Shown: one piece after another, positions 8,794 to 37,318 of the stretch
Layout: every line of letters starts with the position of its first letter
Numbering within the stretch: the stretch's first letter is position 1
Assembly: GCA_050290185.1 (NCBI GenBank)
Contig: JBNKHE010000008.1
Coordinates: 148,647-212,646 of the forward strand
Source: Pontiella sp.
Lineage (GTDB): Bacteria > Verrucomicrobiota > Kiritimatiellia > Kiritimatiellales > Pontiellaceae
Length of the DNA: 64,000 nt
Direction of reading: 5' to 3'
Program-made: the position numbers and the translations under genes
Notes under the pieces: generated by a model
Told to the model about the DNA's origin: nothing
Seen by the model: the letters and a program-made list of their open reading frames with translations, nothing else
Database searches by the model: none

Positions 8794-10911
8794 TTAGCCG
8801 CCGATGATGCGGTGGGCAACGAGATGTTCGGCGAGGGATTCAATGGCGCGGGGAACGGTGGCTTCCCTGGCGATGACATCGGGCTGGAGGCCAAGGAGTT
8901 CCAGGGCGTCGGCCGTGGGTTTACCGATCACGACGATCGATTTTCCGGCGAGGGCATCTACCCCCCATTGGCCGACCAGCGATTCCACGCCGGAGGCACT
9001 GGCAAAGAATACAGCGTCGAACGGCGGAAGCTCTTCGTATTCAACCCGCACGTTGTCATAGATGACGGAGTCCTCGACTTCTGCACCGTTTTCCCTAAGG
9101 GCAATGGCGAGATCCGGTCCGGCCTTGTCGGAGCGGACGCGCAGGATCTTTTCGCCGGGCTTGATCACTTCGCTGGCCAGTGCAATGAGCGAGTCGGCGC
9201 TGAAACCGGCTTCGGGCTGGGCATCGACGCAGATGCCGTACTCCGCGAATTCGGCGGCGGTTCCGCGACCGCAGACCATGATTCTGGGGATCCTGCGGAA
9301 ATCGATCTTCTGGTAGCGGACAATTTCCATGAAGGCGCGGACGGATGACGGCGAGGTGATCGCCAGCCAGTCGAATGACGCACATTGCAACGGCACATGG
9401 TGCCTGCATTTCAATTTGATCAGAGGAAACTGCACGGGCTGACCGCCAAAATCGCGAACGAGGTCGGCGGCCTTTTGCTGGATGGCATCGGAGCAGGAGA
9501 GCAGGATCCGCTTTCCCTGCAGTGCTCCGAGATCGGTCTTGTAGGCGTAGGCGGTGGTGTCGCCCACGATGATAAGTCCGGGTTGCTTAAGGCAGTGGGT
9601 TTTCGCCTGGTCTAAAAGTGCGCCCAGCGTGGTTTTGAAAATCCGTTCGTCTTCGCCGCCAGCATTGAAGACCAGGGCGGCGGGGGTGTCGGGCGAATGG
9701 CCGTCTTCCAGCATTTGACGGGTAACGGGTTCAATGGCTTTGATCGACATGTAGTAGATGACCGGCAGTTGATCTTTCATTTTGCCGTCGCAACGTGCCA
9801 GTCCGCCGCCGTGCATTCTTGGCGTGAGCGCCACAAAACCACGAGAAACATCGCGGCGGGTCAAGAGCATGCCGGTGCCGGTGGTTGCGGCCTGCAGGGC
9901 ACTGATGCCTGGAATGACACGGAAAGGGATGCCGAGTTTTTCGAGTGCTTCGGTTTCTTCGGCCAAGCGGCCGAAAATACCGGGGTCGCCGCCCTTGAGG
10001 CGCACGACCTTTTTGCTTTGCCGTGCACATTCGCAAATAAGTTTGGTGGTTTCGTGCTGTTCTTTGCTATGGGCGCCGCATCGCTTGCCGACGTCGATGG
10101 CTTCGGCGTGAGGGGGAAGTTCATCCAGCAGGCTTTTATCAATGAGCGAGTCATAGAGGCAGGTGTCGCACTGCTGCAGCGCTCGCAGGGTGGCGATGGT
10201 GCAAAGTTCTTTGTTGCTGACGCCGGCGCCGGCAAATGTGACGGCGTGCGTGAAGAGACTGCGCAGTGCCATCATGCGTTCGTCGCCTTCGCGGAAGGTG
10301 ATGGCCAGATAGCCCTGGGCTTCTGGAACTTCCAGCTCATCGAGAGGAATCCATTCGGTTACGCGTTCTTCAAGCCCCAGTCGCACGAGGGCCGCTCCGG
10401 CCATGACCATCACATCGAAATCGCCGGCATCGACCTGGGCAATCCGTTCTTCGATGTTGCCGCGGATGGTTTTTTGGATGCCGTGGGGGAATTTTTGGGT
10501 GCAGTAGGCTTCGCGCCGTTCGGAGCTGACGCCGATCACAGGATGGTCCGGCAAATCGGTCACCGCGTGGTTCGGAGCGAGAATCAGTGCGTCACGCGGT
10601 TCCTCGCGCCATGGCAACCAGAACCAGTCGATCCCCTCGGGCATAGGCGCGGGCAGATCCTTGGCACTGTGAACCGCAAAGTCGACTTCGCCGCGCAGCA
10701 GGGCATCGTCGAGTTCCTTGGTGAAAAAATTCGCCGGGCTGTTGCGCAGGTCGGTGGTGCGGTCGGTATCGCCCACGGACGTGATGGGCACCGACTCGAA
10801 AACGATGTCGTCGAGCATGCGCTCGATGCGGTTAAGGGCGGCACGCGACTGGGTCAGCGCCAGGCTACTCGGTCGAGTACCCGCCTTTAAAACTTTTGGT
10901 GATCTTTTCAT
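8794..10911 (-). CDS. hemC: HemC-CobA(SUMT)-HemD triple fusion (hydroxymethylbilane synthase / uroporphyrinogen-III methyltransferase / uroporphyrinogen-III synthase)
   Basis: AGTRPSSLALTQ, FTKELD, AVHSAKDLP, IRGNIEER (HemC); VRLKGGDPGIFGR..EE, VIPGISA (CobA); ITSPSSVRAF, FASASGVE (HemD). ATG at 10911 overlaps the upstream gene by 47 nt. Confidence 0.9.
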   Translation of the reverse strand: MKRSPKVLKAGTRPSSLALTQSRAALNRIERMLDDIVFESVPITSVGDTDRTTDLRNSPANFFTKELDDALLRGEVDFAVHSAKDLPAPMPEGIDWFWLPWREEPRDALILAPNHAVTDLPDHPVIGVSSERREAYCTQKFPHGIQKTIRGNIEERIAQVDAGDFDVMVMAGAALVRLGLEERVTEWIPLDELEVPEAQGYLAITFREGDERMMALRSLFTHAVTFAGAGVSNKELCTIATLRALQQCDTCLYDSLIDKSLLDELPPHAEAIDVGKRCGAHSKEQHETTKLICECARQSKKVVRLKGGDPGIFGRLAEETEALEKLGIPFRVIPGISALQAATTGTGMLLTRRDVSRGFVALTPRMHGGGLARCDGKMKDQLPVIYYMSIKAIEPVTRQMLEDGHSPDTPAALVFNAGGEDERIFKTTLGALLDQAKTHCLKQPGLIIVGDTTAYAYKTDLGALQGKRILLSCSDAIQQKAADLVRDFGGQPVQFPLIKLKCRHHVPLQCASFDWLAITSPSSVRAFMEIVRYQKIDFRRIPRIMVCGRGTAAEFAEYGICVDAQPEAGFSADSLIALASEVIKPGEKILRVRSDKAGPDLAIALRENGAEVEDSVIYDNVRVEYEELPPFDAVFFASASGVESLVGQWGVDALAGKSIVVIGKPTADALELLGLQPDVIAREATVPRAIESLAEHLVAHRIIGG

Positions 10912-12361
10912 ATAGATCCTGATTGTCGGCAACGATGGCGCGGCTTTGCGCCAGGATTTCGGTCATATCAGCCAATTCGCGGCGGTACCAGTATTTGAGT
11001 CCGTCCAGGTCAACCACGGTAACATCGGACGAGAGGTCGTCCAGTTCGGGGTCGACATTGCGCGGCATGCCAAGGTCGATCACGGTTACCGGGCGTTCCT
11101 GATTGAAGAAGGGCTCATGCCCGAGGTGCAAAAGATGGCCCGGAGCATCCGCGGCACTGACGATAACGTCGGCATCCGTTATCTGGTTTTTCATGTCGTT
11201 AAAGGTGCAGAGTTCCACTTTTCCATTCCAGTCTGCGGGGACGTCGGGCCGGTTTACATGATAGCACCAGACAATCCGACCCACCTTGGGCAGCGCATCC
11301 TTGACGAGGCCCTTGCCGACCATGCCGGCTCCCAGCACCATCAGGGTGGTATTTTCGTGGATCTTGCCCTCGGCTTCAAGATAGCGCAGGGAGAGGTCTT
11401 CGATTTCGTAGCTGTGCAGCAGCGGAGCAACTTTGTTCTTGATGGCTTTTGATATGTACAGCGCCGTGGAGATCCACTCCTGAATCATATTGCTCGACCA
11501 GCCCCGCCCTTTGGATTGCTCGAGTGCTTCTTTCATTTGGGCTGTAATGTGGTTTTCGCCGGGGGTTTGCGAAAGCATGCCGGCCGTAACCAGGCAGAGG
11601 TGTTCGTAGGCGGCCTTGCCGGTTTTGAGGTAGTATTTGTCTTCCTTCAGGTTCGTAAAGCCCATGACGTGGCGCAGAATGCCGTTTTGCATGGTTTCTT
11701 CGGAGACCACCGCGATGACCTCGACGCGGTTGCAGGTGTTGAGAATCATGAATTCGTGAATGCCCCAAAGCTGCATGATCATGAAGCCGGCTCGTTCCAG
11801 GCGGTGTCCCGTAAGGTGAAAGGGTTCGCGCTCTTCGACGGTGAGGTGGTTGTGTGAGGTTCCCACAATGACGAGATGGGCCGATTCCATCATCTTCAGA
11901 TGGCGCGACAGGCTGTTCTTGACCATCTTGGACTGACGACAGTCGTTGCCGCCGGAGGAGACGGAGACGGTCAGCTGGTTATGTCGGGTAATCGCCGGAG
12001 TGCTGAAATCGCTGTCGGCCCAGTTTCCGTCCACGCAGCAGCAAAGAACATGCTGTTCGCGGCAACATTCGAGTACATGGCGATTGACTCCGCGGCTATT
12101 GGTGGCTGCGTATACGAGTATTGCACCCTCGATATCGTGGTCCTCGAAGCGGCGGACCGTGTGGGTGACAAGACCCTGTTCGATCAATGTGCCGAGCTCG
12201 TCGCAGACGTCGGGACTGACCACGGCCACCTGTGCGCCCGCTTTTTGCAGTAGCTGAATCTTGCGCAGGGCGACTTTTCCGCCACCGACGACCAGGCAGG
12301 GGCGCCCTGCCAGAAACAGGTTGATGGGAATGCCATTATAGATTGGTTTTTCTTCGCTCAT
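10865..12361 (-). CDS. hemA: SirC/Met8 (precorrin-2 dehydrogenase) fused to glutamyl-tRNA reductase
   Basis: N-terminal PINLFLAGRPCLVVGGGKVALRK...AATNSRGVN...DFSTPA (CysG N-terminal/SirC); then VGTSH, LNTCNRVE, S..PGENHI, VLGAGMVG, IDLGMPRNVDP (HemA). Confidence 0.88.
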   Translation of the reverse strand: MSEEKPIYNGIPINLFLAGRPCLVVGGGKVALRKIQLLQKAGAQVAVVSPDVCDELGTLIEQGLVTHTVRRFEDHDIEGAILVYAATNSRGVNRHVLECCREQHVLCCCVDGNWADSDFSTPAITRHNQLTVSVSSGGNDCRQSKMVKNSLSRHLKMMESAHLVIVGTSHNHLTVEEREPFHLTGHRLERAGFMIMQLWGIHEFMILNTCNRVEVIAVVSEETMQNGILRHVMGFTNLKEDKYYLKTGKAAYEHLCLVTAGMLSQTPGENHITAQMKEALEQSKGRGWSSNMIQEWISTALYISKAIKNKVAPLLHSYEIEDLSLRYLEAEGKIHENTTLMVLGAGMVGKGLVKDALPKVGRIVWCYHVNRPDVPADWNGKVELCTFNDMKNQITDADVIVSAADAPGHLLHLGHEPFFNQERPVTVIDLGMPRNVDPELDDLSSDVTVVDLDGLKYWYRRELADMTEILAQSRAIVADNQDLYEKITKSFKGGYSTE

Positions 12362-12799: not shown

Positions 12800-13606
12800 A
12801 TGAACGCAACAAGATCAAAACAAAAGATGACGGGCTCGCATCGGGCCGTACTCACAGGAGCAATGATTCTGTTCTTGATCGGGACAAACACCAGCTTTGC
12901 ATATGACCGCTACAATGATGGGTGTGTTGATTGCCACGGTGCATTTAACGATTCGACTACCACAAAAGGATCCACTTTCGCCCTTGGGAATAAACACGAC
13001 ATGCACCGCTATACGATGGGTACGGATTGTGATCTATGCCATCTGAGTGGGGATCAAAAAAATCCATACATGTGGAAGTCGAATGGTACGGCTAACAATT
13101 CCGGATTAGGGTGCACGGGATGCCACGTGGGCAATGGTTTGCGCGCGCATCACGATGCAAATGGAGTGGTGGAATGTTATGATTGCCATGATCCCGCTGC
13201 ATCGTCCGCAGAGAACGTTGATCCACCCTATTATGGAACGGTGGATACGTTCGCGAACAATGCGTGCAACGATATTTTGGCATCGAACACCAACGAAAAC
13301 TGGACGGTTGGTGATTTTCTTGGGTTAGACAACGATGGCGATGGCCTTTACGACTTGGCGGATTATTCCTGCGGTCCATTGCGGTTGGTGGAAATTGTTC
13401 CCGAGGGCAACAACATACGTGTCCGCTGGGAAACAGCCGGTGGCCGCGCGGAGCGAATTCAGGCAACGTCGGTCCTTACCAATGGGTTTTCGAATATTGG
13501 GACAACCGTTACGATTCCTGGCGTTGGCATCGTGACCCAGGAAGTGGTTGAGGTAAGCGGTGCTGTAGACCCGGTGCGCTTCTATCGGATTCGTTCTATA
13601 CCCTGA
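12800..13606 (+). CDS. Exported tetraheme c-type cytochrome with DNDGDG motif and C-terminal sorting-like domain
   Basis: Signal peptide; CVDCH, CDLCH, CTGCH, CYDCH; LDNDGDGLYD; ends RFYRIRSIP. Confidence 0.85.
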   Translation: MNATRSKQKMTGSHRAVLTGAMILFLIGTNTSFAYDRYNDGCVDCHGAFNDSTTTKGSTFALGNKHDMHRYTMGTDCDLCHLSGDQKNPYMWKSNGTANNSGLGCTGCHVGNGLRAHHDANGVVECYDCHDPAASSAENVDPPYYGTVDTFANNACNDILASNTNENWTVGDFLGLDNDGDGLYDLADYSCGPLRLVEIVPEGNNIRVRWETAGGRAERIQATSVLTNGFSNIGTTVTIPGVGIVTQEVVEVSGAVDPVRFYRIRSIP

Positions 13607-13954
13607 TCACCGACATAGCCCGGAGATTGAAAGCGCCGTTGCGGTAGGCATGACCGTAGCGGCGTTTTTTTCTTTTCCGGCAAAAAAGCAAATTGGCATC
13701 CACCGAGGCATCCTGAAGCAGGACGTCGTATTGGTAGCCATATCTCCAAAATCAAGATCGGGTGTGAGGGTGCCGGGGGCGGCATACCATGCGGATTCGC
13801 CATCAAGGGCGATTTGGACACAGGTGTAACCGCCACTGTCTACCTTTTCCACCACGGTTCCAACGGATCCGGGCATCGGTTCCGCCCATGCCGTTCCAGG
13901 GAAAAGCAGCAGGGACGCAAAAAGAGACGGGATGATTCGTTTCGTTGCAGACAT
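13607..13954 (-). pseudogene. Truncated/degenerate paralog of the NrfJ-like protein at 23270-23770
   Basis: Signal peptide and GTVVEKVDSGGYTCVQIALDGESAWYAAP align with GTVVSTEDSGSYTYVQLAIEGSNVWYAVP; similarity is lost after ~60 aa and the ORF runs through the opposing terminator. Confidence 0.6.
13633..13672 (+). terminator. Intrinsic terminator after tetraheme cytochrome
   Basis: CGCCGTTGCGGT-AGGCATG-ACCGTAGCGGCG then a T run. Confidence 0.7.
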
Positions 13955-14034: not shown

Positions 14035-14134
14035 GAAGTCACGCATGCTTCTCCGAGGCCTACTTACCGTTGGATTTCTTGTGCTTCTTGCGGCCGATCT
14101 GGCTTTCCTCGGGGGAGAGACGTTCACGATCTGG
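14035..14134 (-). repeat. Orphan diverged copy of the 3' end and downstream flank of the cytochrome gene at 18208-20112
   Basis: Minus strand encodes DRERLSPEESQIGRKKHKKSNGK* versus DRERLSPEESQVGRKKHKKSNDK* at 18208-18280; flanking GAAG.CACGC.TGCTTCTCCGA.GC also shared. Confidence 0.9.
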
Positions 14135-14454: not shown

Positions 14455-17400
14455 GTGAGATTCAAAAGCACCAATGGTATATGTGCGGCTTTGTGCGCAC
14501 TGGTCTGCTTGGCCGCAGTTCCGGCCCTGGCCCAGTCCAATCACACTGCAAAGGTGGATTTTACCAAAATTGACCCCAATGCCGAATTCAAAGAAGGGCG
14601 GTTATTGGTGCGTTTCAGGCCAGGCAATGAAAAAGCCAGAGCCACACGCCAGAACAAAATGGCTGCGTTAGGCGGAAACATCAGTAAACAGTTTAAGTCG
14701 TTTCCTGATCTATGCGTTGTTGAATTGAATCCCGGTATGAATGTTAAAGCGGCGCTGAAATCGTTTAACGGGAGCTCCGAAGTTCTTTATGCCCAGCCTG
14801 ATTATGCTTGTCAGGCATGCAACATTCCCAATGACCCGTTGCTCTCGTACCTGTGGGGCATGGACAATACCGGCCAAACCGGAGGCACACCCGACGCCGA
14901 TATCGATGCACCGGAGGCCTGGGATATGTCCACCGGGGACGGCAGCGTCGTAGTGGCCGTCATTGACACAGGAGTGGACTACACCCATCCGGATTTGGAT
15001 GACAATATGTGGGTCAACAGCGGTGAAATAGCCGATAACGGAGTGGACGACGACGGCAACGGCTACATAGATGACGTATACGGCTATGATTTCCGCAATG
15101 GCGACGCCGATCCAATGGACGACAATTCCTACTACGGAATTTACCATGGCACTCATTGTGCAGGCACTGTTGGTGCCGAAGGCAACAACGGCGAGGGCGT
15201 GGCCGGTGTTTGCTGGGATGTACGTATCATGGCTCTCAAATTTTTGAATTGGCAAGGAAGTGGTTGGAACTCCGACGCAATAGATTGTATCGACTATGCC
15301 ATACAGAATGGAGCTAATGTGATAAGCGCCTCCTGGGGGGGGGGAGGATACAGCCAGGCGTTGAAAGACGCCATTGACGACGCAGGTGCGAACGGCATTG
15401 TGTTCGTCGTAGCCGCGGGCAACTCTTCTTTGAACGCCGATAGCATCCCGTTCTATCCTGCCTGCTATGACTCAGACAACATCATTTCCGTGATTAGCAC
15501 CGACGACAACGATGCCCTGTCGTCGTTCTCCAACTATGGATTGCTCTCCACCGATTTGGGGGCGCCGGGAAGCGACATTTACAGTTGCGAGCCTGGTGGA
15601 GGATATCATTATCTCGATGGGACATCGATGGCAGCCCCCTGTGTTGCGGGGGCTTGTGCACTGTTGCTTTCCGTCAACCCCGACCTTTCCGTCGCTGAAA
15701 TCAAACAGACTCTGATGGACACGGTTGATCCGACATTGACAGGCGTATGTGCCTCGGGCGGCCGACTCAACCTCGCCAGCGCAGTTGCTTTGAGTTCATT
15801 CAGCTACACCGTCAATCCGAACTACACCATCACCATCACCCAATACAACGGCGTTGGCGGCAACGTGGTCATTCCCAGCGAGATTGGTGGCCGTCCCGTG
15901 ACCACCATTGGCGTTGGCGCGTTCGCAGATTGTTCCGGTCTGACGAGTGTGGATATCCCCGGCTCCGTTACGACCATTGACGATGGCGCGTTCGCTGGTT
16001 GTTCCGGTCTGATAGGCGTGGGCATACCCAGCTCTGTTACGACCATTGGCGATGGGGTGTTCTCAGGTTGTTCCGGTCTGACAAGCGTGGGCATACCCTA
16101 CACTGTTACGAGCCTTGGCGATGGGGTGTTCGCAGGTTGTTCCGGTCTGACGAGCGTGGGTATACTCGGCCCCGTTACAACCATTGGCGACGGGACGTTC
16201 GCAGGTTGTTCCGGTCTGACGAGCGTGTATATGCCCGGTACCGTTACGAGCATTGGCTATGGGGCGTTCTCAGGTTGTTCTGCTCTGACGAGCGTGGATA
16301 TTCCCGATGCCGTTACAACCCTTGGCAATGGGGCGTTCGCGGGTTGTTCTGCTCTGACGAGCGTGGTTATACCTGATAATGTTACCGTTATCGGTGATCA
16401 GGCGTTTGCTGGTTGTTCCGGTCTGACGAGTGTGGATATACCCGACGGTGTCACTACCATTGGCAGCGCTGCGTTCGGAAGTTGTTCTAGCCTGTCCGAC
16501 ATACTGATCGGTAGTGGGGTTGCCTCCATTGGTGATTATGCGTTCGCAGGTTGTTCCAGTCTGACGAATGCGGTATTTTCTGGAGATGCGCCTTCGTTGG
16601 GTTCGAACGTCTTTATCAGTGATAACTCCTGTACGGTTTACTATTATGCAGGTACGTCGGGCTGGGGGACCACGTTCGGTGGGCGTCCGACGGTTCAGTG
16701 GGCTAATCCCTCCCACTTCAATTATACCGTAGATTCGGGCAGCACCATTACCATCACCGGGTACACTGGTTCCGGAGGTCATGTGGTTATTCCCGGGTAT
16801 ATTGAAGGACTGCCCGTGAGCACCATTGGCGGTGGGGCGTTCTTTCAGTGTAGCAACCTGACGAGCGTGAACATACCCGGCAGTGTCACCATCATTGGCG
16901 GTGGGGCGTTCGCAAATTGTCCCAATCTAGCGAGCGTGGATATACCCAACAGCGTCACCTCCATTGGTGATGCGGCATTCGCAGGTGGTTCCAGTCTAAC
17001 GAGCGTGCATATACCCGACGGCGTTACCGCTATTGCCGGTTCGACGTTCGTAGCTTGTTCCAGCCTGACGAGCGCGGATATTCCCGACAGTGTCACCACC
17101 ATTGGTGATTATGCGTTCGCCGGTTGTTCCAGCCTGCACGACATAAATATCGGCAGTGGGGTTAACTCCATTGGTGATTATGGGTTCGCAAGTTGTTCCT
17201 CCCTGACGGCTGCGGTATTTTTGGGACATGAGCCTTCATCGGGTTCGAACGCCTTTATCGGTGCTAACTCCTGTACGGTTTACTATTATGCAGGTGCGTC
17301 GGGCTGGGGGGCCACGTTCGCTGGGCGTCCGACGGTGCCGTTGGATAATCCCTCTCTGTTCAACTACACAACAAACACGGACAACACCATTACCATCACC

Positions 17401-17991
17401 GGGTACATCGGTTCCGGAGGTGATGTGGTCATTTCCAGGTACATTGACGGCCTGCCCGTGAGCACCATTGGCGGTGGGGCGTTCTTTCAGTGTAGCAACC
17501 TGACGAGCGCGAACATACCCGGCAGTGTCACCATCATTGGCGCTGGAGCGTTTGCAAATTGTCCCAATCTAGCGAGCGTGGATGTGCCCAACAGCGTCAC
17601 CTCCATTGGCAGCGCGGCGTTCGCAGGTTGTGGCAGTCTAATGAGCGTGCATATACCCGATGGCGTCACCGCCATTGCCGGTTCGACGTTCGTAGCTTGT
17701 TCCAGCCTGACGAGCGCGGATATTCCCGACAGTGTCACCACCATTGGTGATTACGCGTTCGCAGGTTGTTCCAGCCTGCCCGACATAATGATCGGCAGTG
17801 GGGTTAACTCCATTGGTGATTATGGGTTCGCAAGTTGTTCCTCCCTGACGGGTGCGGAATTTTTTGGGGATGCACCTGCATTGGGAGGTTCGAATGTCTT
17901 TATCGGGGCTAACTCCTGTACGGTTTACTATCATGCAGGTACGTCGGGCTGGGGGCCCGTATACGGTGGCCGTCCGACGCAAGAGCTTTAG
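14455..17991 (+). CDS. Secreted S8 peptidase fused to three blocks of BspA-type leucine-rich repeats (LRR_5)
   Basis: GTG start after AAGGAGG; signal peptide; I9-like prodomain; VAVIDTGVD, HGTHCAGT, DGTSMAAP; then 23-aa repeats LTSVDIP.SVTTIGD.AFAGCS. Confidence 0.92.
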   Translation: MRFKSTNGICAALCALVCLAAVPALAQSNHTAKVDFTKIDPNAEFKEGRLLVRFRPGNEKARATRQNKMAALGGNISKQFKSFPDLCVVELNPGMNVKAALKSFNGSSEVLYAQPDYACQACNIPNDPLLSYLWGMDNTGQTGGTPDADIDAPEAWDMSTGDGSVVVAVIDTGVDYTHPDLDDNMWVNSGEIADNGVDDDGNGYIDDVYGYDFRNGDADPMDDNSYYGIYHGTHCAGTVGAEGNNGEGVAGVCWDVRIMALKFLNWQGSGWNSDAIDCIDYAIQNGANVISASWGGGGYSQALKDAIDDAGANGIVFVVAAGNSSLNADSIPFYPACYDSDNIISVISTDDNDALSSFSNYGLLSTDLGAPGSDIYSCEPGGGYHYLDGTSMAAPCVAGACALLLSVNPDLSVAEIKQTLMDTVDPTLTGVCASGGRLNLASAVALSSFSYTVNPNYTITITQYNGVGGNVVIPSEIGGRPVTTIGVGAFADCSGLTSVDIPGSVTTIDDGAFAGCSGLIGVGIPSSVTTIGDGVFSGCSGLTSVGIPYTVTSLGDGVFAGCSGLTSVGILGPVTTIGDGTFAGCSGLTSVYMPGTVTSIGYGAFSGCSALTSVDIPDAVTTLGNGAFAGCSALTSVVIPDNVTVIGDQAFAGCSGLTSVDIPDGVTTIGSAAFGSCSSLSDILIGSGVASIGDYAFAGCSSLTNAVFSGDAPSLGSNVFISDNSCTVYYYAGTSGWGTTFGGRPTVQWANPSHFNYTVDSGSTITITGYTGSGGHVVIPGYIEGLPVSTIGGGAFFQCSNLTSVNIPGSVTIIGGGAFANCPNLASVDIPNSVTSIGDAAFAGGSSLTSVHIPDGVTAIAGSTFVACSSLTSADIPDSVTTIGDYAFAGCSSLHDINIGSGVNSIGDYGFASCSSLTAAVFLGHEPSSGSNAFIGANSCTVYYYAGASGWGATFAGRPTVPLDNPSLFNYTTNTDNTITITGYIGSGGDVVISRYIDGLPVSTIGGGAFFQCSNLTSANIPGSVTIIGAGAFANCPNLASVDVPNSVTSIGSAAFAGCGSLMSVHIPDGVTAIAGSTFVACSSLTSADIPDSVTTIGDYAFAGCSSLPDIMIGSGVNSIGDYGFASCSSLTGAEFFGDAPALGGSNVFIGANSCTVYYHAGTSGWGPVYGGRPTQEL
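15895..16580 (+). repeat. 69-bp tandem coding repeats (LRR block 1)
   Basis: Recurrent ACCATTGGCGATGGGG.GTTC.CAGGTTGTTC.G.TCTGACGAGCGTGG at 69-nt spacing. Confidence 0.85.
16705..17980 (+). repeat. Tandem ~642-bp internal duplication (LRR blocks 2 and 3)
   Basis: Near-identical blocks at 642-nt offset, e.g. CTGCCCGTGAGCACCATTGGCGGTGGGGCGTTCTTTCAGTGTAGCAACCTG at ~16810 and ~17452. Confidence 0.9.
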
Positions 17992-17999
17992 TCATCCGG

Positions 18000-18182: not shown

Positions 18183-18280
18183 GAAGCCACGCTTGCTTCT
18201 CCGAAGCCTACTTGTCGTTGGATTTCTTGTGCTTCTTGCGGCCGACCTGGCTTTCCTCGGGGGAGAGCCTTTCTCGGTCG
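18183..18280 (-). repeat. Second copy of the ~100 bp direct repeat (functional 3' end of cytochrome gene)
   Basis: Matches 14035-14134 in the same orientation. Confidence 0.9.
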
Positions 18281-26744: not shown

Positions 26745-26750
26745 CGATCC

Positions 26751-27911: not shown

Positions 27912-27975
27912 AGACAATTGGGACAGGTAGACAGTTAACTAAGCAGTGGCGATATCGCCATGGAGGGGAAATAAA

Positions 27976-30252: not shown

Positions 30253-31623
30253 ATGAAGGATCTTTCCAGAATCAGCCTTAACGTGACCTTGCTCGGCGCA
30301 GGGCTTTTTTTATTTGGGGCTTCGGCCTTTGGCAAAGAGGCGGCGTCCCCGGCCTATTCGGGTTCGTTACGCGCCACATACGACTATCGCGGGATGGGCG
30401 ATTACGAAGACCATGATGCCTATAGCTACTGGTATTTTCGTGGACGCGATCTTGGCGATGAGCTTGTGGATATCTATACCTCCGGCCGGTTTCACTCCGA
30501 CCTGGATGGCACCACCTCTACCGCATACGATCCCTTCGGAAGTATAAGCGATGGCTCACAGGGTGATTTTCGGTTGCTTCAGTTTTATGTGGATATTCAC
30601 AACCGCGAGCAGAGCATGGCCATGCGCTACGGTCGTCAGTATGTAGACATCGCGGATTATATTCAACTGGATGGCGCGCAGGTCATGCTGTTTGAAAAGC
30701 AGGCGATTGGCGGCCGGGTATTTATCGGTCAGCCGGCCAGTGACTATTCCGCGACAGACGGGGACGTCTTTTTGGGAGCATCTCTAGTCGGAAGACCATG
30801 GAGTGGCAATCAAAGCCGGGCCACCTATGCACGATATCGCGATGACAGCAAAGCTGTTGCGGATGATCATGTTTTTCTGAATATGAAACAAACCCTGGGG
30901 GACGAACTCAGGACGCACGCTTACCTTTCCGTCATGAATAATGATGTTCGCATGGGCGGGGCCGATCTGTTTTATGTCTCTATGTCGGATTATGTATTTG
31001 ATGCGGTTTTGGGGGTTAAGCGCTGGGGGGATTACACTGCCGATACGCGGGCCTATTCTCCTTTGTCGGAAGCCTTGAACGGTCTGGAGCCCTACACTAT
31101 GGGATACGGCCGCTTTACCGCGGAACTGTTGCCCTGGCTATATCTTTCTCCGGGGGCCACGCTCCGTGAACCCGACGACGAAAACTTTACCAACCGCCGT
31201 TTTGAGCGGTACGACCTCAGTTTCATTCTGGAGCCGACTGACGGGCTCAGTTCCACTGTTGCCCTGGAATACTGGGATGTGGACGACGACAGTGAATTTT
31301 TCGGTGTGAGTGGAGATATCCGCTACCGCTACCGGAAGCTCTGGGAGCTGTCGCTGGGGGCGGCCTACGTGGATTATACCTATCTGCAGTTAAGCGATCA
31401 GTCGGTGTTTAACAACGACGAAGCGATCCTTCCCGAACTTCCAATCAATCCGCAGGATGGTTCTCGCGTAGAGGCCTCCCCCAACGCGTTTACGTATTAT
31501 CTGCGTGGACGGTGGAGCATCACCGAGAAAGCGGCGTTGCGGCTTTCGGGCGAACTTGAAGACGATAGCGACGAGGAAGATCTGAGCTATCGGATTCGCA
31601 CATCATTTGAGGTACGGCTGTGA
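30253..31623 (+). CDS. Outer-membrane beta-barrel protein (putative porin of a porin-cytochrome complex)
   Basis: Signal peptide; Tyr/Gly/Asp-rich alternating beta strands (RLLQFYVD, RYGRQYV, LDGAQV); terminal strand YRIRTSFEVRL; lies between two multiheme genes. Confidence 0.75.
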   Translation: MKDLSRISLNVTLLGAGLFLFGASAFGKEAASPAYSGSLRATYDYRGMGDYEDHDAYSYWYFRGRDLGDELVDIYTSGRFHSDLDGTTSTAYDPFGSISDGSQGDFRLLQFYVDIHNREQSMAMRYGRQYVDIADYIQLDGAQVMLFEKQAIGGRVFIGQPASDYSATDGDVFLGASLVGRPWSGNQSRATYARYRDDSKAVADDHVFLNMKQTLGDELRTHAYLSVMNNDVRMGGADLFYVSMSDYVFDAVLGVKRWGDYTADTRAYSPLSEALNGLEPYTMGYGRFTAELLPWLYLSPGATLREPDDENFTNRRFERYDLSFILEPTDGLSSTVALEYWDVDDDSEFFGVSGDIRYRYRKLWELSLGAAYVDYTYLQLSDQSVFNNDEAILPELPINPQDGSRVEASPNAFTYYLRGRWSITEKAALRLSGELEDDSDEEDLSYRIRTSFEVRL

Positions 31624-32621
31624 AAATGAATCGCATAATCCAGTTCACGACGATGGCTGTATTCCTTGTCCTGCTGTCCGGATGCAAGGAAGAAGAGAAA
31701 TACCAGCTGCGCTTCAGTCACTATCTTCATGTAACCGAAAATGAAATGGGTTGCGATGAATGCCACGGTGAACCGGGACAACCCTCGTTCAGCGCCATTT
31801 CGCACGAAACCTGCCTCGACTGCCATGACGAGCCGGAGGCGGAAGAGATTGCCGCTGAAACCTGCGGAATGTGCCATCAGGAAAAACAGCTGGCTGTTTT
31901 TGCGCTGCCGGAAACCGAAGAAGCGGATGCCGCGTACGAGGTAGACAAAGTACCGGCCCGGAATATTTTCGTACACACTGAAGCCCTTGCAGGTCAATGC
32001 ACGGACTGCCATGAATACTTGCTGGACGAAAATCTGGACGCTGTGCCTATGCTGGAGCGTAGCGATGTGCTGGCTATACGCCAGAAAGCCCATGCGTCGG
32101 GGCAGGAGTGTATCACTTGCCATGTAGATATGGATCCAGGGATTCCGCCGGCCAGTCATGATGTGGCATGGACCAAACGGCATGGCCGGTTTTCCATGCA
32201 GGATGATGCCTCGTGCAGCGTCTGCCATACACAGGACAGTTGCATGGATTGCCATAATGTCATGCAGCCGGTTTCGCATAACACCATGTTCCGGACGCGC
32301 ACGCACGGTACGCTTGCCGCGTGGAACCGCGACAGCTGCCAGGTATGCCATGAAGAAGACTCGTGCACGTCATGTCATGCCATGACGCGGCCAAGATCGC
32401 ACAATGCCCGCTGGGGTGCTGCGGGTTTCAAACCGACACACTGTATTGGCTGCCACGATACATCAACGCCGGGCGATGGTTGCGCAACCTGTCATGAGAA
32501 TGGCAACGATGTCATGTTGCATGAACGCTACTGGGGAGGTGCTCCTATCAACCATAACCAACCGGGCATTGAAAACTGCTACATCTGCCACTGGACGCAA
32601 GCCCCGCAAGGGACTCTCTAG
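31620..32621 (+). CDS. Dodecaheme c-type cytochrome lipoprotein
   Basis: Lipobox LLSG-C; LRFSH..H (c7-like); 12 CxxCH counted; paired CxxCH-X4-CxxCH with PxSH motifs; start overlaps porin stop. Confidence 0.9.
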   Translation: MKMNRIIQFTTMAVFLVLLSGCKEEEKYQLRFSHYLHVTENEMGCDECHGEPGQPSFSAISHETCLDCHDEPEAEEIAAETCGMCHQEKQLAVFALPETEEADAAYEVDKVPARNIFVHTEALAGQCTDCHEYLLDENLDAVPMLERSDVLAIRQKAHASGQECITCHVDMDPGIPPASHDVAWTKRHGRFSMQDDASCSVCHTQDSCMDCHNVMQPVSHNTMFRTRTHGTLAAWNRDSCQVCHEEDSCTSCHAMTRPRSHNARWGAAGFKPTHCIGCHDTSTPGDGCATCHENGNDVMLHERYWGGAPINHNQPGIENCYICHWTQAPQGTL

Positions 32622-32632: not shown

Positions 32633-33304
32633 CTACAGTTTGCGAACGGTGCATCCGTCAGGCGCGATGTCGATTTCAAAGTCGATGATGCCTTCCGAAC
32701 CGCGGATCGTGGCCTTGACGGGCTCGGTAACCGTAAGTGCGAATGCCAGCGTATTCAGTTCGGATGGCGAGCATTGAATAATGCCAAGACTGCCGGTCGC
32801 GTTGACGATACCTTCTGCGCTGGCCTCATTCGCTGCAGATGCGGGATGCAGAGATACGATTTTAGATGAAGAGTTTCCCGGTACACGCACAACGAGTGTG
32901 ATGTCTTCGGGCAGGTTGAGGCCTTCACCCACATTGAATTCCAAATGAACGGCCAGTCCTGCAGAGGTTTGCTGTACTGTAGCTTCCTGCAAGAACAGCG
33001 TTTCAACCTCTTCTTTGACGGGGTTGACGGGGAGGGAGGTGCGGTTTGTGCGCATCGTTGAGAGCCGTTCCCGGGTCTCTTTCGATGAATCTCCGCTGTT
33101 TAAATCATTAATTTCCGCTTTGGCAGTGGTAAGTTCCTGCTGCAGTTTGCTGTTTTGAACGGTAAGCTGCTGCACGCGGTCAGTTGCTTCCGTATGATTG
33201 CGCCACAGCATCGCAATGGCGAGGAGCAGGATCACGGTGGGCGCCAGATAGAGTGCAACGATGAGAGGATTGCGGGGCCGGTTTGGAGAGGTTGATTTAT
33301 TCAT
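32633..33304 (-). CDS. Hypothetical membrane-anchored protein with coiled coil
   Basis: 223 aa ORF, one TM helix, coiled-coil segment, beta-rich C-terminal domain. Confidence 0.7.
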   Translation of the reverse strand: MNKSTSPNRPRNPLIVALYLAPTVILLLAIAMLWRNHTEATDRVQQLTVQNSKLQQELTTAKAEINDLNSGDSSKETRERLSTMRTNRTSLPVNPVKEEVETLFLQEATVQQTSAGLAVHLEFNVGEGLNLPEDITLVVRVPGNSSSKIVSLHPASAANEASAEGIVNATGSLGIIQCSPSELNTLAFALTVTEPVKATIRGSEGIIDFEIDIAPDGCTVRKL

Positions 33305-33473
33305 GATTTGAGTATGCGGTTCCAGTGTTCAAGGGTCAAGGTCATCATCGCGATCCCGGGCTCTTGTTGAGGCTTTTTTCCTTTTCTTACGGGATATTCA
33401 GGATCATATGGGTCGACATCAGCAGGCTCAAATCCTAGAGTACGCACCAATTACTAAAAACAGGGATTTGCTT

Positions 33474-34079
33474 ATGAAACAGATTGTTATTGCCTCCTCA
33501 CTTTTGGTTTTGATCGCCGGTTGCAAACGCTCGGAGCCAACGTCCTATGAAGTTCCGAAGGAGCCGGCTACGCCGGCTTCCCAGCAGGCGGCTCAGCCGT
33601 CGATGGGCTCCATGGGTTCCGATACGGATATGCAAATGGTACAGGCTGCGCATGCCTCCATGATGCAAAACACCGCTTCGCCGGCATTCACCGCCGATCT
33701 GCCCGAAGGTTGGGCGGAAGCTCCAGGTACCGGTATGCGTATGGTGAGTTACACGATCCCGGAAACCTCCATTGACTTCTACATGATTCCGCTTTCGATG
33801 GGCGATGTGCCGAGCAACGTCAACCGTTGGCGCGGTCAGGTGGACCTGCAGGACGCCTCCCCGGAGGAAATCGCAGGTCAGGTGGAAACCTTCCAGGTCG
33901 ACTGCCACGCCGTTAACTACATTGAAATCTACAATGAAGAAGGCGGCAAGGGCATCATTGCCGCCATAGTCGATCTCGCTCCGAGCTACTGGTACTTCAC
34001 GGCCAAGGGGTCTGTTGACGAACTGAAGTCCAACGCCGCCGATATCCGTAAAGTCATCGAAAGCATAAAAATCAAGTAG
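33474..34079 (+). CDS. Lipoprotein encoded upstream of resB/ccsA
   Basis: Lipobox LIAG-C; LPEGW...GMR; NVNRWRGQ motif; WYF..KG. Confidence 0.75.
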   Translation: MKQIVIASSLLVLIAGCKRSEPTSYEVPKEPATPASQQAAQPSMGSMGSDTDMQMVQAAHASMMQNTASPAFTADLPEGWAEAPGTGMRMVSYTIPETSIDFYMIPLSMGDVPSNVNRWRGQVDLQDASPEEIAGQVETFQVDCHAVNYIEIYNEEGGKGIIAAIVDLAPSYWYFTAKGSVDELKSNAADIRKVIESIKIK

Positions 34080-34148
34080 TCCCGGCGACGCTCGTTCGTC
34101 ACGGAATCCGTGCGGAAACGGGGTTGTTTGCGGCTCGATTGCAACATT

Positions 34149-35570
34149 ATGAAAAAAATCATCGATTTCTTCCTGTCGCTTAAGCTGACGGTGGCATTGC
34201 TGGCCCTCAGTATGGTGCTGGTGCTCGCCGGAACGCTGGCCCAGATCGACAAGGATATCTGGGCGGTCATGGAGCAGTATTTCCGCTGCTATATGGCTCA
34301 GATCGACCTGTTTGTCTTCTTCCCGCGTTCCTGGGACATTCCCCGCAATATATGGATTCCGTTCCCAGGCGGTTTTCTGATTGGCTTCCTGTTGACGGTC
34401 AACCTGCTGATGGTGCATTCCGCCAGTTTCAGGGTGGTGGCCAAGGGCAACCGTCGGCTCGCCGGGTTCTTGGTCCTGTTGCTGGGGATTCTGGTTGTGG
34501 TGGGCGTCATGTTCGGCTGGGGCACAACGGCGGTGGCGGCCACGGAAGACGATGCGTTTTGGCGCGTATTCCTGCGTCTTGGACGTGGAACATTGGCGGC
34601 CGTGGTCTTGTTCTGGGCCTGCCATTTGCTCTACTACAAACGCGCGGGCATGGTTTTGCTGCACGGTGGGATTCTGTTTCTGCTGATAGGCGAATTCATT
34701 ACCGCCCAGTTTGCGGTGGAAGCCAACATGACCATCAAAGAGGGCGAAACGGTCAACTATATCGACCGCACCCAGCAACTTGAACTCTCCTTTACCGACA
34801 CCTCGGATCCCCAGCATGACATAGTGACCGTGATCCCGCAGGAAAAACTAAAGGACGACGCTCTGATCCAGCCCGACACCCTACCTTTCGATATCAAGAT
34901 TAATCACTACATGCTCAACTCGAACAATCCGCAACCCCTGACCAACGTGTCCGAGCGGCAGCGCAACAGTTACCCGAAATACGAAGGCTACGGATCCCGT
35001 CTCTATGTAGCCGAACAGCGCGAGGTCAGCGGAACCATGAGCGCCCGCAATGCGCCGGCAGTCGATGTGGAATTGTTTGACCGGCAGTCCGGTGCATCGC
35101 TGGGCCGCTACATCCTGAGTCTGTGGTTCTACCCCAACTTCGTCAACCAGGCATGGGATATGCCTACCCGGATCAAGGTTGATGGCAAGGAATATATCGT
35201 TTACTACCGTTTTGCGCGGGAATATCTGCGCTCCCCGAGCGGAAGTCCCTTTTCGATCACGCTGCTCGACTTTAATCATGAGAATTATGAAGGCACCCAG
35301 ATGCCCAAGGATTTCTCCAGCCATATCCGGCTGGTCAATCCGGGGGATGATGTAGATCGAGAACTGCGTATCTGGATGAACAATCCCTTGCGCTATGCCC
35401 GCCGGACCTTCTATCAGTCCGGCTTTTTGCCTAATGACAGTGGAACCGTGCTGCAGGTGGTTCGCAACGATGTGTGGATGATTCCCTATCTCTCCTGCAT
35501 GATCGTGTTCGTGGGCATGGTCGGACAGTTTTCCCAGTCGTTTAAACGCTATCTTCGGAGGGACGCCTGA
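34149..35570 (+). CDS. resB: ResB/CcsB-like cytochrome c biogenesis protein (system II)
   Basis: SLKLTV.LL....VLV..GTL.Q, LLHGG, PKDFSS, IWMNNPLRY...TFYQS, PYLSC; coupled to ccsA. Confidence 0.85.
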   Translation: MKKIIDFFLSLKLTVALLALSMVLVLAGTLAQIDKDIWAVMEQYFRCYMAQIDLFVFFPRSWDIPRNIWIPFPGGFLIGFLLTVNLLMVHSASFRVVAKGNRRLAGFLVLLLGILVVVGVMFGWGTTAVAATEDDAFWRVFLRLGRGTLAAVVLFWACHLLYYKRAGMVLLHGGILFLLIGEFITAQFAVEANMTIKEGETVNYIDRTQQLELSFTDTSDPQHDIVTVIPQEKLKDDALIQPDTLPFDIKINHYMLNSNNPQPLTNVSERQRNSYPKYEGYGSRLYVAEQREVSGTMSARNAPAVDVELFDRQSGASLGRYILSLWFYPNFVNQAWDMPTRIKVDGKEYIVYYRFAREYLRSPSGSPFSITLLDFNHENYEGTQMPKDFSSHIRLVNPGDDVDRELRIWMNNPLRYARRTFYQSGFLPNDSGTVLQVVRNDVWMIPYLSCMIVFVGMVGQFSQSFKRYLRRDA

Positions 35571-37318
35571 TGCGCCGCACCATTACCAACATGATCGTTG
35601 TTCTGTTTGCGCTCTGGTTCTTTGCGGCCGGAGTACGGCCCGCAAAGGAAGGCGCGTCCGACTTCCAGCTCAGCGCCTTCGCGCATTTGCCGGTAAAATA
35701 CGATGGCCGCATAAAACCGATCGACACTCTGGCGCGCAACCTGTTGACGATTCTTTCCGGCAAGCAGTCGTTGAGCACCGATGACGGCGAGCGGCTGAGT
35801 GCGGTGGAATGGTTTCTCGACACGGTGTCCGGGCGGGAAGAAGCGTTCGACTACAAGGTCATCCGCATCGAAAACCTCGATGTGCTGTCCAGCCTTGGGC
35901 TGGAAGAGCGTCATGGGTTGCGCTACTCCTACCGCGAGCTGGCGCCGAGTCTCGGCAGGCTCAACATGGCCGCGCGGTCGGCCTATGCCAAGGACACCCG
36001 CGACCGCGACGTGTACGACCGGCAGATCGTCAAGCTGGCCAACAAGCTCTATACCTTTGACAACGTGCTATCTTCGTTCGAGGATCCGTCGACCTTTCCC
36101 AAGGACCAGCTGATGGCCACTGCGCAGCGCTATATGCAGCTGGAGGGCTACTCGCTTCCGCTCGTGATTCCGCCGCACGACGCCACGAAACGCTGGCGAC
36201 CGCTCATGAGTTCATTGCTGGCCGGGCCCATGACGACGCCCGATCCGCTGGCCGTCAAGTTCGCTGCCATGCTGCACGATTACCGGGATGGAAGTACCGC
36301 CGGATTCAATCATAATCTGATGGATTACGGCACGGCTGTGAGCCGTGCCAATCCGGAAGTCTTTAGGAAGCTTGGCTTCGAAGTGTTCTACAACCGGCTC
36401 GGCGCCTTTATGAAATCGGCCGAACTTTACCTGCTCGTCTTTGTCCTCAGTTGTATCGGCTGGCTGTTCCGCAAGCAGGGCCTGCTGGATGCCGCCCGCA
36501 CCCTGATGATCTTCGCCTTTATTCCGCACACGTTCGCCATCGTGGCCCGCGTTTTCCTCTCGGGCTATCCTCCGGTAACCAACCTCTACTCCTCCGCCAT
36601 CTTCATCGGATGGGCGGCGGTAGCGGTCGGTATCCTGATGGAAACCGTCTTTCGCAAGAAGGCTGACGGTATCGGCAATCTGGTCGGCGGCATTGCCGGT
36701 TTCACCACCTTGCTTATTGCCCATTTTCTTGCAGGCGACGGCGACACCATGGAGCAGATGCGCGCTGTGCTTGATACCCGCTTCTGGCTGGCCACGCATG
36801 TGACCATAGTAACACTCGGTTATATGGCTACATTTGTCGCCGGTACCATCGGCATGTTCTATGTCTTTGCCGGACTGTTCACCCGGCGGCTCGACACCGA
36901 GACCGAAGACGGCATGTACCGCATGCTTTACGGGACCGTCTGTTTCGCGCTGCTCCTCAGTTTTGTTGGAACAGTGCTCGGGGGCCTGTGGGCCGACGAT
37001 TCATGGGGGCGGTTCTGGGGCTGGGATCCCAAAGAAAACGGAGCGCTACTGATCGTGCTCTGGAACGCCATCATGCTCCATGCCCGCTACGGAAAAATGG
37101 TCAAGCACCGCGGTTTTGCCATCATGTCCATATTCGGCAACATCGTCACGGCCTGGTCGTGGTTTGGGGTCAACCAGCTCAACGTCGGTCTGCATTCCTA
37201 TGGCTTTACGGACTCGGCCGGCTTTTGGTTGATGGTTTTCATCCTTTCTCAGATGGCCATTTGCATGGCATGCCTTATTCCGCCGCGGTTTTGGAGAAGC
37301 GGTGCCACCCAAGGCTAG
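35570..37318 (+). CDS. ccsA: Cytochrome c biogenesis protein CcsA/ResC (system II)
   Basis: GRIKPIDT.AR, PPVTNLYSS, VLDTRFWLATHV, WWD motif LGGLWADDSWGRFWGWDPKEN, GLHSYG. Confidence 0.93.
   Translation: MRRTITNMIVVLFALWFFAAGVRPAKEGASDFQLSAFAHLPVKYDGRIKPIDTLARNLLTILSGKQSLSTDDGERLSAVEWFLDTVSGREEAFDYKVIRIENLDVLSSLGLEERHGLRYSYRELAPSLGRLNMAARSAYAKDTRDRDVYDRQIVKLANKLYTFDNVLSSFEDPSTFPKDQLMATAQRYMQLEGYSLPLVIPPHDATKRWRPLMSSLLAGPMTTPDPLAVKFAAMLHDYRDGSTAGFNHNLMDYGTAVSRANPEVFRKLGFEVFYNRLGAFMKSAELYLLVFVLSCIGWLFRKQGLLDAARTLMIFAFIPHTFAIVARVFLSGYPPVTNLYSSAIFIGWAAVAVGILMETVFRKKADGIGNLVGGIAGFTTLLIAHFLAGDGDTMEQMRAVLDTRFWLATHVTIVTLGYMATFVAGTIGMFYVFAGLFTRRLDTETEDGMYRMLYGTVCFALLLSFVGTVLGGLWADDSWGRFWGWDPKENGALLIVLWNAIMLHARYGKMVKHRGFAIMSIFGNIVTAWSWFGVNQLNVGLHSYGFTDSAGFWLMVFILSQMAICMACLIPPRFWRSGATQG

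Follow-up and report, generated by a model that had tools for sequence, protein, structure and literature searches.

The window analyzed here, a 64,000-nucleotide stretch of contig JBNKHE010000008.1 from a Pontiella sp. genome (GCA_050290185.1, or G000; 3.58 Mb, 95.5% completeness, 0.09% contamination), contains a cassette of multiheme cytochrome genes that probably serves outward extracellular electron transfer, carrying electrons from menaquinol to iron, manganese or humic acceptors. Its parts are of known kinds but newly arranged, and they occur in a lineage of marine sugar fermenters where they were not expected: ImcH- and CbcL-type inner-membrane cytochromes, a putative outer-membrane conduit and an OcwA-like nonaheme cytochrome (Table 1). 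The cassette is real, intact and conserved, while its function is what we infer from these parts. The locus is best explained as an accessory, separately regulated cassette that adjoins the genes by which the genus itself makes heme and matures cytochromes.

A first-pass annotation of this DNA had counted seven multiheme cytochromes with 66 heme motifs, and both the open reading frames (ORFs) and the individual counts (4+11+19+7+4+9+12) were borne out. Sixty-five of the motifs are CxxCH and one is CxxxCH; by comparison, 500 composition-shuffled copies of the same seven proteins yielded a mean of 0.37 CxxCH for the seven together. All seven cytochrome reading frames are intact. The HemC-CobA-HemD and SirC-HemA fusions, the second HemA, ResB, CcsA and Rrf2 that the annotation also listed were all detected by Pfam and NCBIfam.

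The 496-amino acid (aa) heptaheme protein is, judged from its sequence, an ImcH-type cytochrome as defined by three N-terminal helices, a CX3CH motif by the membrane domain followed by six CX2CH motifs, a NapC/NirT domain and a length of ~495-519 aa (PMC6295460, PMC4251993). Hydrophobic segments at residues 10-28, 54-72 and 101-119 account for the three helices, and the NapC/NirT region scored above cut-off (PF03264, E 8.5e-11). The family is large, with 7998 of 8000 scored candidates matching at E <= 1e-20; no Geobacter entry was present among the best 120 of the 7998 homologs listed, and a PDB sequence search returned no match. The other two inner-membrane proteins are paralogs (31% identical) with the architecture of the CbcL/MtrH/MtoC family, in which a multiheme c domain of 3-23 hemes is fused to cytochrome b (PMC6295460): their 11 and 19 CxxCH motifs lie within that range, and PF01292 was above cut-off in both. 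A PDB sequence search with the 11-heme protein gave one weak match only. Four membrane histidines in each (434/473/581/596 in the 11-heme and 698/740/855/870 in the 19-heme protein) would ligate two b hemes according to the spacing rule of FdnI. The earlier recognition of ImcH- and CbcL-type proteins is thus upheld by motifs, Pfam domains and published criteria. Strict orthology with G. sulfurreducens CbcL was rejected because that protein has nine c hemes (bioRxiv 10.1101/2022.08.31.506072). Elsewhere, a CbcL-type protein of G229 (L095:1157-6193) carries 30 CxxCH in 1678 aa (start codon as predicted), above the published range.

The 456-aa protein, which the annotation had regarded as a porin, was modeled as a barrel of 22 long strands without a plug, at a predicted local distance difference test score (pLDDT) of 85. 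All structural matches listed for it are membrane beta-barrels, the best being TonB-dependent receptors, ushers and porins (top Z 19.3, root-mean-square deviation (rmsd) 4.3, 352 residues aligned). MtrB ranked 23rd (Z 16.1), and Geobacter porins were absent from the matches listed, which does not exclude kinship. Pfam and NCBIfam gave no match to this protein, referred to below as the porin. Its profile recovered 613 representatives at E <= 0.001; a profile search with 57 distant members returned 14 proteins, the named ones being 'Ca. Omnitrophica bacterium', and clusters of barrel look-alikes were commonest in Planctomycetota, Myxococcota and Nitrospirota. Membership of the MtrB/PioB family was rejected, as neither PF11854 nor TIGR03509 matched the protein and its partner has 12 hemes rather than being a decaheme; profiles of that family matched 1-2 of the 57 distant members, weakly.

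The partner is a dodecaheme lipoprotein and putative wire, whose homologs carry 12-26 hemes and an invariant lipobox Gly-Cys (36 of 36 aligned); a PDB sequence search returned generic c7/ActA matches only. The porin adjoins a nonaheme and/or dodecaheme homolog in 35 of 37 metagenome loci, the other two being short or ending at the porin. A complex prediction for the porin and dodecaheme scored 0.17 against a mark of 0.32, with controls not folded, and was counted neither for nor against. Conduits of this sort comprise a multiheme cytochrome, a barrel and an outer redox protein (PMC6148476); all three are encoded side by side here, the outer location being predicted. The dodecaheme lipobox and the C-terminal domain of the nonaheme suggest an outer-surface redox protein. 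For the periplasm, a c554-like tetraheme is the candidate shuttle, and no ORF of at least 70 aa with exactly three CxxCH, the mark sought for a PpcA-type triheme, occurs in the genome. The label Geobacter-style therefore suits the inner-membrane half; it does not suit the remainder, which lacks a PpcA-like triheme and has a terminal cytochrome resembling OcwA and OmhA.

That cytochrome belongs to the OcwA/OmhA clade by virtue of its core fold, which joins c554 and NrfA-type nonaheme features. Its best profile matches were OcwA (E 1.6e-22) and OmhA (E 8.8e-16). Likewise, its model (pLDDT 80) aligned with OcwA at Z 12.3 (rmsd 4.0, 325 residues aligned, 25% identity) and with OmhA at Z 11.1, compared to 7.8 for the next structural match and 7.6, 7.4 and 6.5, respectively, for ONR, MccA and NrfA. 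Histidine dyads at both five-coordinate hemes mark the OcwA clade (PMC9250108). Here H306/H307 and H429/H430 occupy these positions and are kept in 23, 25, 29 and 22 of 29 aligned rows; the first dyad aligns to OcwA and the second to OmhA, the match to published numbering being made through an inferred offset. Identity as an NrfA/ONR nitrite reductase was rejected because the protein has no CxxCK or any other CxxC-non-His motif. OcwA and OmhA are cell-surface Fe(III) reductases of Gram-positive bacteria (PMC9250108, PMC7829351), and OcwA-like nonahemes have already been noted in Gram-negative bacteria (PMC7829351).

In addition to this core, the nonaheme has an N-terminal immunoglobulin (Ig)-like domain, TSP3 repeats and the lineage's C-terminal domain of ~70 aa. 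A hidden Markov model (HMM) of that domain, built from 37 motif-chosen tails with cytochromes excluded, matched 67 of 4743 ORF tails (33 seeds and 34 new), including those of the nonaheme (E 3e-7) and the left-edge tetraheme (E 1.5e-4). Within the window the domain lies at 29953-30195, at 13364-13606 and in the tail of 3027-5189. It ends in [FY][FY]R, and its carriers are mostly long proteins with hydrophobic N-termini. There was no NCBIfam match, a literature search by title and abstract turned up nothing, and an Atlas search at 0.90 returned TSP3-containing Verrucomicrobiota clusters only. The hexaheme encoded on contig C3 has a similar motif at its end but is not one of the 67 matches. We regard the domain as a predicted surface-export signal, which may export or anchor proteins of this lineage. 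The annotation had strung the cytochromes from inner membrane to surface; this stands for the inner-membrane types and, for the surface cytochrome, as a prediction.

The limits of the cassette were set by comparison with the stretch beside dinG in five porin-less genomes (G007, G032, G061, G064 and G076). In the first four, that stretch holds dinG, hemC-cobA-hemD (copies 72-77% identical), sirC-hemA, the lipoprotein gene, resB, ccsA and the kinase, with no cytochrome; the stretch retrieved from G076 contained dinG alone. ImcH gave only weak matches in these five genomes, to ORFs of 177-200 aa. Because the core genes are contiguous without cytochromes in cassette-free genomes, the accessory part corresponds to ~12800-33304 (~20 kb). 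The proposal of a self-contained island consequently fails, as resB/ccsA and the hem fusions belong to the core of the genus, being present in four of the five cassette-free genomes examined. Pfam and NCBIfam scans of the block found no hemL, hemB or late heme-synthesis genes. The position of the cassette also varies: it follows ccsA in G002, rather than preceding the lipoprotein gene, and runs directly into the kinase in G062.

An Rrf2 regulator is encoded within the cassette, and its residues C92, C99, C105 and H108 are putative Fe-S ligands by the pattern of IscR. Rrf2 would bind two palindromes, one between imcH and rrf2 and the other ahead of the arm encoding the outer conduit. A matrix trained on 16 sites of other loci, with this genome's sites excluded, ranked these two first and second over 3.42 Mb (24.8 and 22.7 bits; next 17.7). 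Part of this ranking must be put down to descent, given that the matrix was trained on orthologous sites. As for a wider regulon, 22 matches were found besides the cassette sites, inside the shuffled range of 3-23, and none is claimed. The cassette-borne hemA lies in a 1.2-kb tract (26800-28000) that is 98-99% identical to L010, compared to mostly 60-85% in the flanks, a sign of recent recombination.

Table 1. Features of the cytochrome block and flanking genus-core genes (window coordinates).
Feature	Position	Strand	Basis or remark
hemC-cobA-hemD fusion, genus core	8794..10932	-	Pfam PF01379/PF00590/PF02602
sirC/cysG N-terminal domain + short glutamyl-tRNA reductase fusion, genus core	10865..12361	-	PF13241 + PF05201, TIGR01470 above cut-off
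Tetraheme cytochrome with lineage C-terminal domain, left cassette edge	12800..13606	+	4 CxxCH; C-terminal-domain HMM E 1.5e-4
Remnant of small secreted accessory gene, paralog of 23270-23770	13607..13954	-	alike only over 13769-13924, 43%, E 1e-7
97-nt direct repeat copy 1 (3' end of 11-heme cbcL-like gene, duplicated)	14035..14131	.	90% identical to 18183-18279
Subtilase S8 + BspA leucine-rich-repeat protein	14455..17991	+	PF00082, PF13306
97-nt direct repeat copy 2	18183..18279	.	pairs with 14035-14131
CbcL-type bc cytochrome, 11 c-hemes + cytochrome b domain	18208..20142	-	644 aa, 11 CxxCH, PF01292 E 1e-15
CbcL-type bc cytochrome, 19 c-hemes + cytochrome b domain	20267..23140	-	957 aa, 19 CxxCH, PF01292 E 2e-7
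Small secreted accessory protein	23270..23770	-	no family; homologs in cassettes across class
ImcH-family inner-membrane heptaheme, putative menaquinol oxidase	23790..25280	-	496 aa, CxxxCH + 6 CxxCH, PF03264
Putative Rrf2 operator, palindrome with RGAY-N6-RTCY core, in imcH-rrf2 interval	25402..25425	.	conserved in 9 aligned loci
Rrf2 regulator	25489..25926	+	PF02082, TIGR00738
Palindrome second copy, upstream of tetraheme-hemA-nonaheme-porin-dodecaheme arm	26055..26078	.	conserved in 9 loci
c554-like tetraheme, periplasmic, putative shuttle	26166..26744	+	4 CxxCH; PF13435 E 1.5e-15
Second glutamyl-tRNA reductase (hemA), cassette-borne	26817..27911	+	TIGR01035 331 bits
Nonaheme, OcwA/OmhA fold, putative surface terminal reductase	27946..30195	+	9 CxxCH; profile E 1.6e-22 to 6i5b
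22-strand plugless outer-membrane beta-barrel, unnamed family	30253..31623	+	456 aa; model pLDDT 85
Dodecaheme lipoprotein, putative wire	31620..32621	+	12 CxxCH, 27.8 aa per heme
Membrane-anchored coiled-coil protein, right cassette edge	32633..33304	-	one hydrophobic helix; homologs adjoin dodecaheme in relatives
Lipoprotein gene upstream of resB, genus core	33408..34079	+	in cassette-free genomes too
ResB/CcsB-like cytochrome c maturation (system II), genus core	34110..35570	+	PF05140; cassette-free genomes too
CcsA/ResC-like cytochrome c maturation (system II), genus core	35570..37318	+	PF01578; cassette-free genomes too

The block also contains genes that the first list had passed over, namely a 1178-aa subtilase-BspA gene (14455-17991) and four small non-cytochrome ORFs. 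Since 97-nt copies of the 11-heme gene's 3' end, both encoding the same C-terminal peptide, lie on either side of it, the subtilase-BspA gene is a later insertion, outside the electron chain. Related loci carry no copy at this place, and no integrase or transposase ORF adjoins the insertion (14035-18279). The left-edge tetraheme is variable, having three hemes in relatives and often being missing. A full-length version of the remnant gene next to it is present at the same position in L013; we provisionally call this gene NrfJ-like, a label that no search returned.

The annotation had suspected a Kiritimatiellota host, and the relatives agree: four of the five porin loci in species genomes are titled Pontiella (porin identity 59-74%), the kinase and response regulator next to them show 84-94% identity in the loci that have them, and NCBI taxonomy places Pontiella within Kiritimatiellota. 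Nothing pointed to a Desulfobacterota origin. Nor did the assembly show any sign of being chimeric: GC content in 2-kb steps across the block is 0.51-0.59, compared to 0.55 for the whole window, both cassette junctions recur in other assemblies and contamination is 0.09%. One run of unspecified type contains near-identical fragments at low depth along the cassette, which were not counted as evidence. A transfer-messenger RNA (tmRNA) gene with the tag ADESYALAA lies at 63498-63853.

We detected the porin in 13 of 53 genomes of the genus (5 of 22 high-quality ones) and in 27 of 401 genomes drawn from the class, representing 12 of 162 genera. It was absent from 24 genomes of other families of the order, and a draw of 401 phylum genomes gave one weak match outside the class. 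Its closest relatives are in Pontiella (52-74%), followed by other families of the class (~40-45%). ImcH occurs in 45 of the 401 class genomes, three of the matches having an internal stop, and in 26 of the 27 that bear the porin, although kin among these are not independent. FastTree trees with midpoint roots were compared for seven core genes (13 genomes, some genes missing) and five cassette genes (15 rows, some drawn from overlapping loci). The groups G000-G072-G023-G011 and G016-G065 are common to both trees, cassette-free G032, G061, G064 and G007 cluster with the carriers G002 and G062, and G075 shifts between trees. Because the cassette tree repeats two core-tree clades and cassette-free genomes group with carriers, these findings favor a history of long residence with losses and some exchange. 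GC content at third codon positions (GC3) is lower in the outer arm, from rrf2 to the gene at 32633 (0.58-0.65), than in core genes (0.69-0.75), which counts against pure vertical descent.

Other Pontiella suggest an exchange of parts. In G015 and G028 (L091 and L093), ImcH and the tetraheme stand beside other cytochromes and an unrelated 660-aa barrel-like protein, the same pattern as the swapping of outer conduit components described in PMC6148476. Together with L100 (G420) and L036 (G065), these loci have such a barrel-like protein of 657-664 aa, with no Pfam match, next to ImcH and the tetraheme, and in G420 and G065 two conduits occupy one region. In L014, from an uncultured organism of 44% GC, an 11- and 19-heme pair is divergent from 8-heme, porin and 11-heme genes, at 28-50% identity, indicating that the module extends beyond Pontiella-like genomes.

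Electrons from sugars can reach menaquinone in this organism, since its genome has Na-NQR (five subunits above cut-off, plus three NQR/Rnf-family membrane subunits) and menaquinone genes (two of the mqnA/D family). It also encodes one SdhA-like protein, a Hox-like NiFe hydrogenase, NifH and, apart from the cassette, NrfAH, and it has 10 GH2 matches and one sulfatase match. A single sulfatase match was found in 7 of the 53 genus genomes, while others have hundreds of candidates. The idea that the cassette marks sulfatase-poor Pontiella was rejected, as carriers span from 1 to at least 35 sulfatase matches (up to 271 candidates).

Other redox loci are scattered over the genome. Contig C7 (L044:7072-12060) encodes, in a single run of genes, Rieske, cytochrome b, a cytochrome c with 7 motifs and a subunit of a heme-copper (cbb3-like) oxidase, in a genus described as anaerobic. 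A 10-heme cytochrome lies within a nitrate-assimilation-like cluster beside nifH on contig C1 (L039:6637-16636), and contig C2 (L040:8523-11342) has a 9-heme, Fe-S and NrfD unit with no catalytic subunit in the scanned ORFs. A second conduit, on contig C3 (G000:C3:173634-181226; L041:5635-13227), fits PCC3: it comprises a flavin/Fe-S protein, a 299-aa membrane protein with two WX3HX13H motifs, 20- and 24-heme cytochromes and a 603-aa barrel-like protein. Its 24-heme protein is matched in 7 of 53 genus genomes.

Genes, motifs, folds, synteny and distribution, together with the Na-NQR and menaquinone genes, were computed; locations, partners, order, direction, acceptor and regulation, and whether the system supports growth or is a mere drain for fermentation electrons, are interpretation, as follows. 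NADH from sugar breakdown would reduce menaquinone by way of Na-NQR. By analogy with Geobacter, the ImcH-type protein would oxidize menaquinol when high-potential acceptors are available, and the two CbcL-type proteins would do so at lower potentials. The c554-like tetraheme, or else the 19-heme protein's long tail of hemes, may cross the periplasm to a conduit formed by the dodecaheme lipoprotein and the 22-strand barrel. The OcwA-type nonaheme, presumably exported through the C-terminal domain that it shares with large secreted proteins, would then reduce oxides of Fe(III)/Mn(IV), humic quinones or some other acceptor that conducts. With its additional HemA the cassette may raise heme supply, and Rrf2 may control both arms through the two palindromes. 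Outward transfer is supported because ImcH homologs among metal-cycling bacteria were limited to Fe(III) reducers in a 2018 survey (PMC6295460) and because the nonaheme is closest to OcwA and OmhA.

Several observations weigh against this interpretation. Cultures of Pontiella and Kiritimatiella reduce ferric citrate as well as anthraquinone-2,6-disulfonate (AQDS)/MnO2 during fermentation, K. glycovorans does so even without quinones or c-type cytochromes, and H2 with AQDS/MnO2 gave no growth (PMC7356697), which means that members of the group can reduce metals with no cassette of this kind. Fe(II) oxidizers and Fe(III) reducers alike have homologs of CbcL/MtrH/MtoC (PMC6295460), and proteins of the OcwA clade reduce nitrite or NO in vitro as well (PMC9250108). 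The dodecaheme lipoprotein could face either side, its +2 residue varying among K, D, E and N, and the surface location assigned to the nonaheme depends on a C-terminal domain of predicted function. Finally, no complex I was found in the genome, where PF00361 gave two matches only, and so the energy gain may be modest.

Among the alternatives, the one that fares best, unlikely as we judge it, is that the cassette serves to reduce or detoxify some soluble compound of nitrogen or sulfur (nitrite, NO, hydroxylamine or polysulfide), with the nonaheme as the enzyme and the barrel as substrate channel or scaffold. The nonaheme does belong to the NrfA/ONR/MccA/OcwA superfamily and keeps both His dyads, and Rrf2 proteins often sense NO or sulfur status. 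However, it has no CxxCK and is nearer OcwA/OmhA than ONR, MccA or NrfA, the genome has a separate NrfAH, and a soluble periplasmic substrate would need no lipoprotein of 12-26 hemes fixed beside a barrel in most loci.

Slightly less likely again is inward or two-way transfer, in which the cell would be supplied by reduced humics, Fe(II), sulfide minerals or a cathode with electrons that it passes to O2 or nitrite. The presence of CbcL/MtrH/MtoC members in Fe(II) oxidizers (PMC6295460) is in keeping with this, as are the Rieske/cytochrome b and cbb3-like oxidase genes, NrfAH and the second, PCC3-type conduit of this genome. Against these stand the reports of ImcH only as a quinol oxidase in reducers, in the available text of PMC6295460 and PMC4251993, the reductase activity of OcwA and OmhA, and a motif scan, weak in itself, that found neither RuBisCO nor CO-dehydrogenase.

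We consider it improbable, to a somewhat greater degree, that the cassette serves transfer between species, with methanogens, cable bacteria or conductive particles as the recipients, rather than mineral reduction. Its anatomy would be the same as that of mineral-reducing conduits, and any external electron sink should help a fermenter; yet no partner-specific feature was seen, and no polymer-forming cytochrome was recognized by sequence among the 15 ORFs with at least four hemes. Patchy presence (13 of 53), two positions relative to resB-ccsA, lower outer-arm GC3, one remnant gene and one insertion might suggest that the cassette was recently acquired by horizontal transfer from Desulfuromonadia/Geobacter, is decaying as a passenger or stems from a chimeric assembly, but with the closest relatives in Pontiella and then the class, two core clades repeated in the cassette tree, seven intact cytochrome frames, recurring junctions and 0.09% contamination this is very improbable and already largely refuted.

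Outward electron transfer thus being preferred, the cassette would represent a second electron outlet, besides H2, in 7-11% of the class genomes sampled, sulfatase-rich ones included. If so, primary polysaccharide degraders could reduce Fe/Mn oxides or humics directly rather than by passing H2 and acetate to specialist reducers. The locus further provides a porin family that has no name and places an OcwA-type reductase in a Gram-negative cell. A bolder version, which we offer tentatively and hold to be less probable than its negation, is that about a tenth of Kiritimatiellia are facultative metal/humic respirers, using an old modular circuit of ImcH, CbcL variants of 9-30 hemes and interchangeable barrels, in which a non-lipoprotein OcwA-type reductase reaches the surface by an undescribed C-terminal-domain export route and docks on the porin-dodecaheme conduit; the breakdown of polysaccharides would in that case be coupled directly to sediment Fe/Mn cycling. 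The public record 'Pontiellaceae bacterium B1224', which has no metagenome-assembled genome (MAG) prefix, carries porin and ImcH homologs; if it is a culture, the idea is open to direct test.

In a 2026 survey covering 898 Kiritimatiellia genomes, the one strategy described is fermentation in which electrons leave as H2 (bioRxiv 10.64898/2026.10.06.756941), and the terms 'cytochrome', 'heme', 'porin' and 'respir' are absent from its main text. Term searches of the accessible text of two broad surveys (bioRxiv 10.1101/2022.03.26.485925; PMC11475568) found no mention of the lineage. The ImcH-CbcL-OcwA cassette did not appear in the literature searched, which lay outside subscription journals, and to that extent the supposition that it is new holds. 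Its elements are already in print: a few ImcH/CbcL homologs in genomes of the Planctomycetes-Verrucomicrobia-Chlamydiae (PVC) group (PMC4251993, PMC6295460) and, in a single sentence, porin-cytochrome (PCC) operons in Kiritimatiellaeota bins (bioRxiv 10.1101/2020.04.01.018762), which may or may not be of the same porin family.

The nearest known systems each share part of this arrangement. G. sulfurreducens ImcH (GSU3259) resembles the heptaheme in length, three helices, CxxxCH followed by six CxxCH and NapC/NirT, a likeness of features and not of identity; its gene is monocistronic (PMC4251993), whereas a single block here unites imcH with two cbcL-like genes and with the outer conduit. CbcL, with nine c hemes in that species and 9-30 among the relatives examined here, is likened by architecture and not by identity. 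The Geobacter conduits OmabcB, ExtABCD and ExtEFG have barrels of similar size (21 predicted strands in ExtE and 18 in ExtB), a dodecaheme and an outer cytochrome (PMC6148476). That likeness is one of description and not of sequence; the dodecaheme here is a lipoprotein, unlike the presumed outer cytochrome, an OcwA-like protein with a C-terminal domain. PCC3 and PCC4 likewise combine a porin with heme-rich cytochromes, and are marked by a ~300-aa membrane protein with two WX3HX13H motifs and by heme counts near 21/34 or 4/5/10 (PMC5566968); assignment of the block to either was rejected, as it has no such membrane protein and its heme counts differ. Clusters of freshwater Verrucomicrobia, from the same superphylum, and the operons of Kiritimatiellaeota bins, from the same class, share the humics/metals hypothesis and barrels of at least 20 strands; those of the Verrucomicrobia have an 8-heme periplasmic partner (PMC5615132). 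Shewanella MtrCAB follows the same logic of porin, wire and surface cytochrome, and MtrB is a structural match to the porin, but its barrel is larger (649 residues) than the 22-strand barrel here, where there are no decahemes. OcwA of Thermincola potens (6I5B) and OmhA of Carboxydothermus ferrireducens (6QVM) share nine hemes, the core fold and both His dyads with the nonaheme. Both are proteins of Gram-positive cells, and OmhA has no tie to a porin-cytochrome complex according to PMC7829351, whereas the nonaheme gene adjoins that of the porin and adds an Ig-like N-terminal domain, TSP3 repeats and the C-terminal domain to the shared core.

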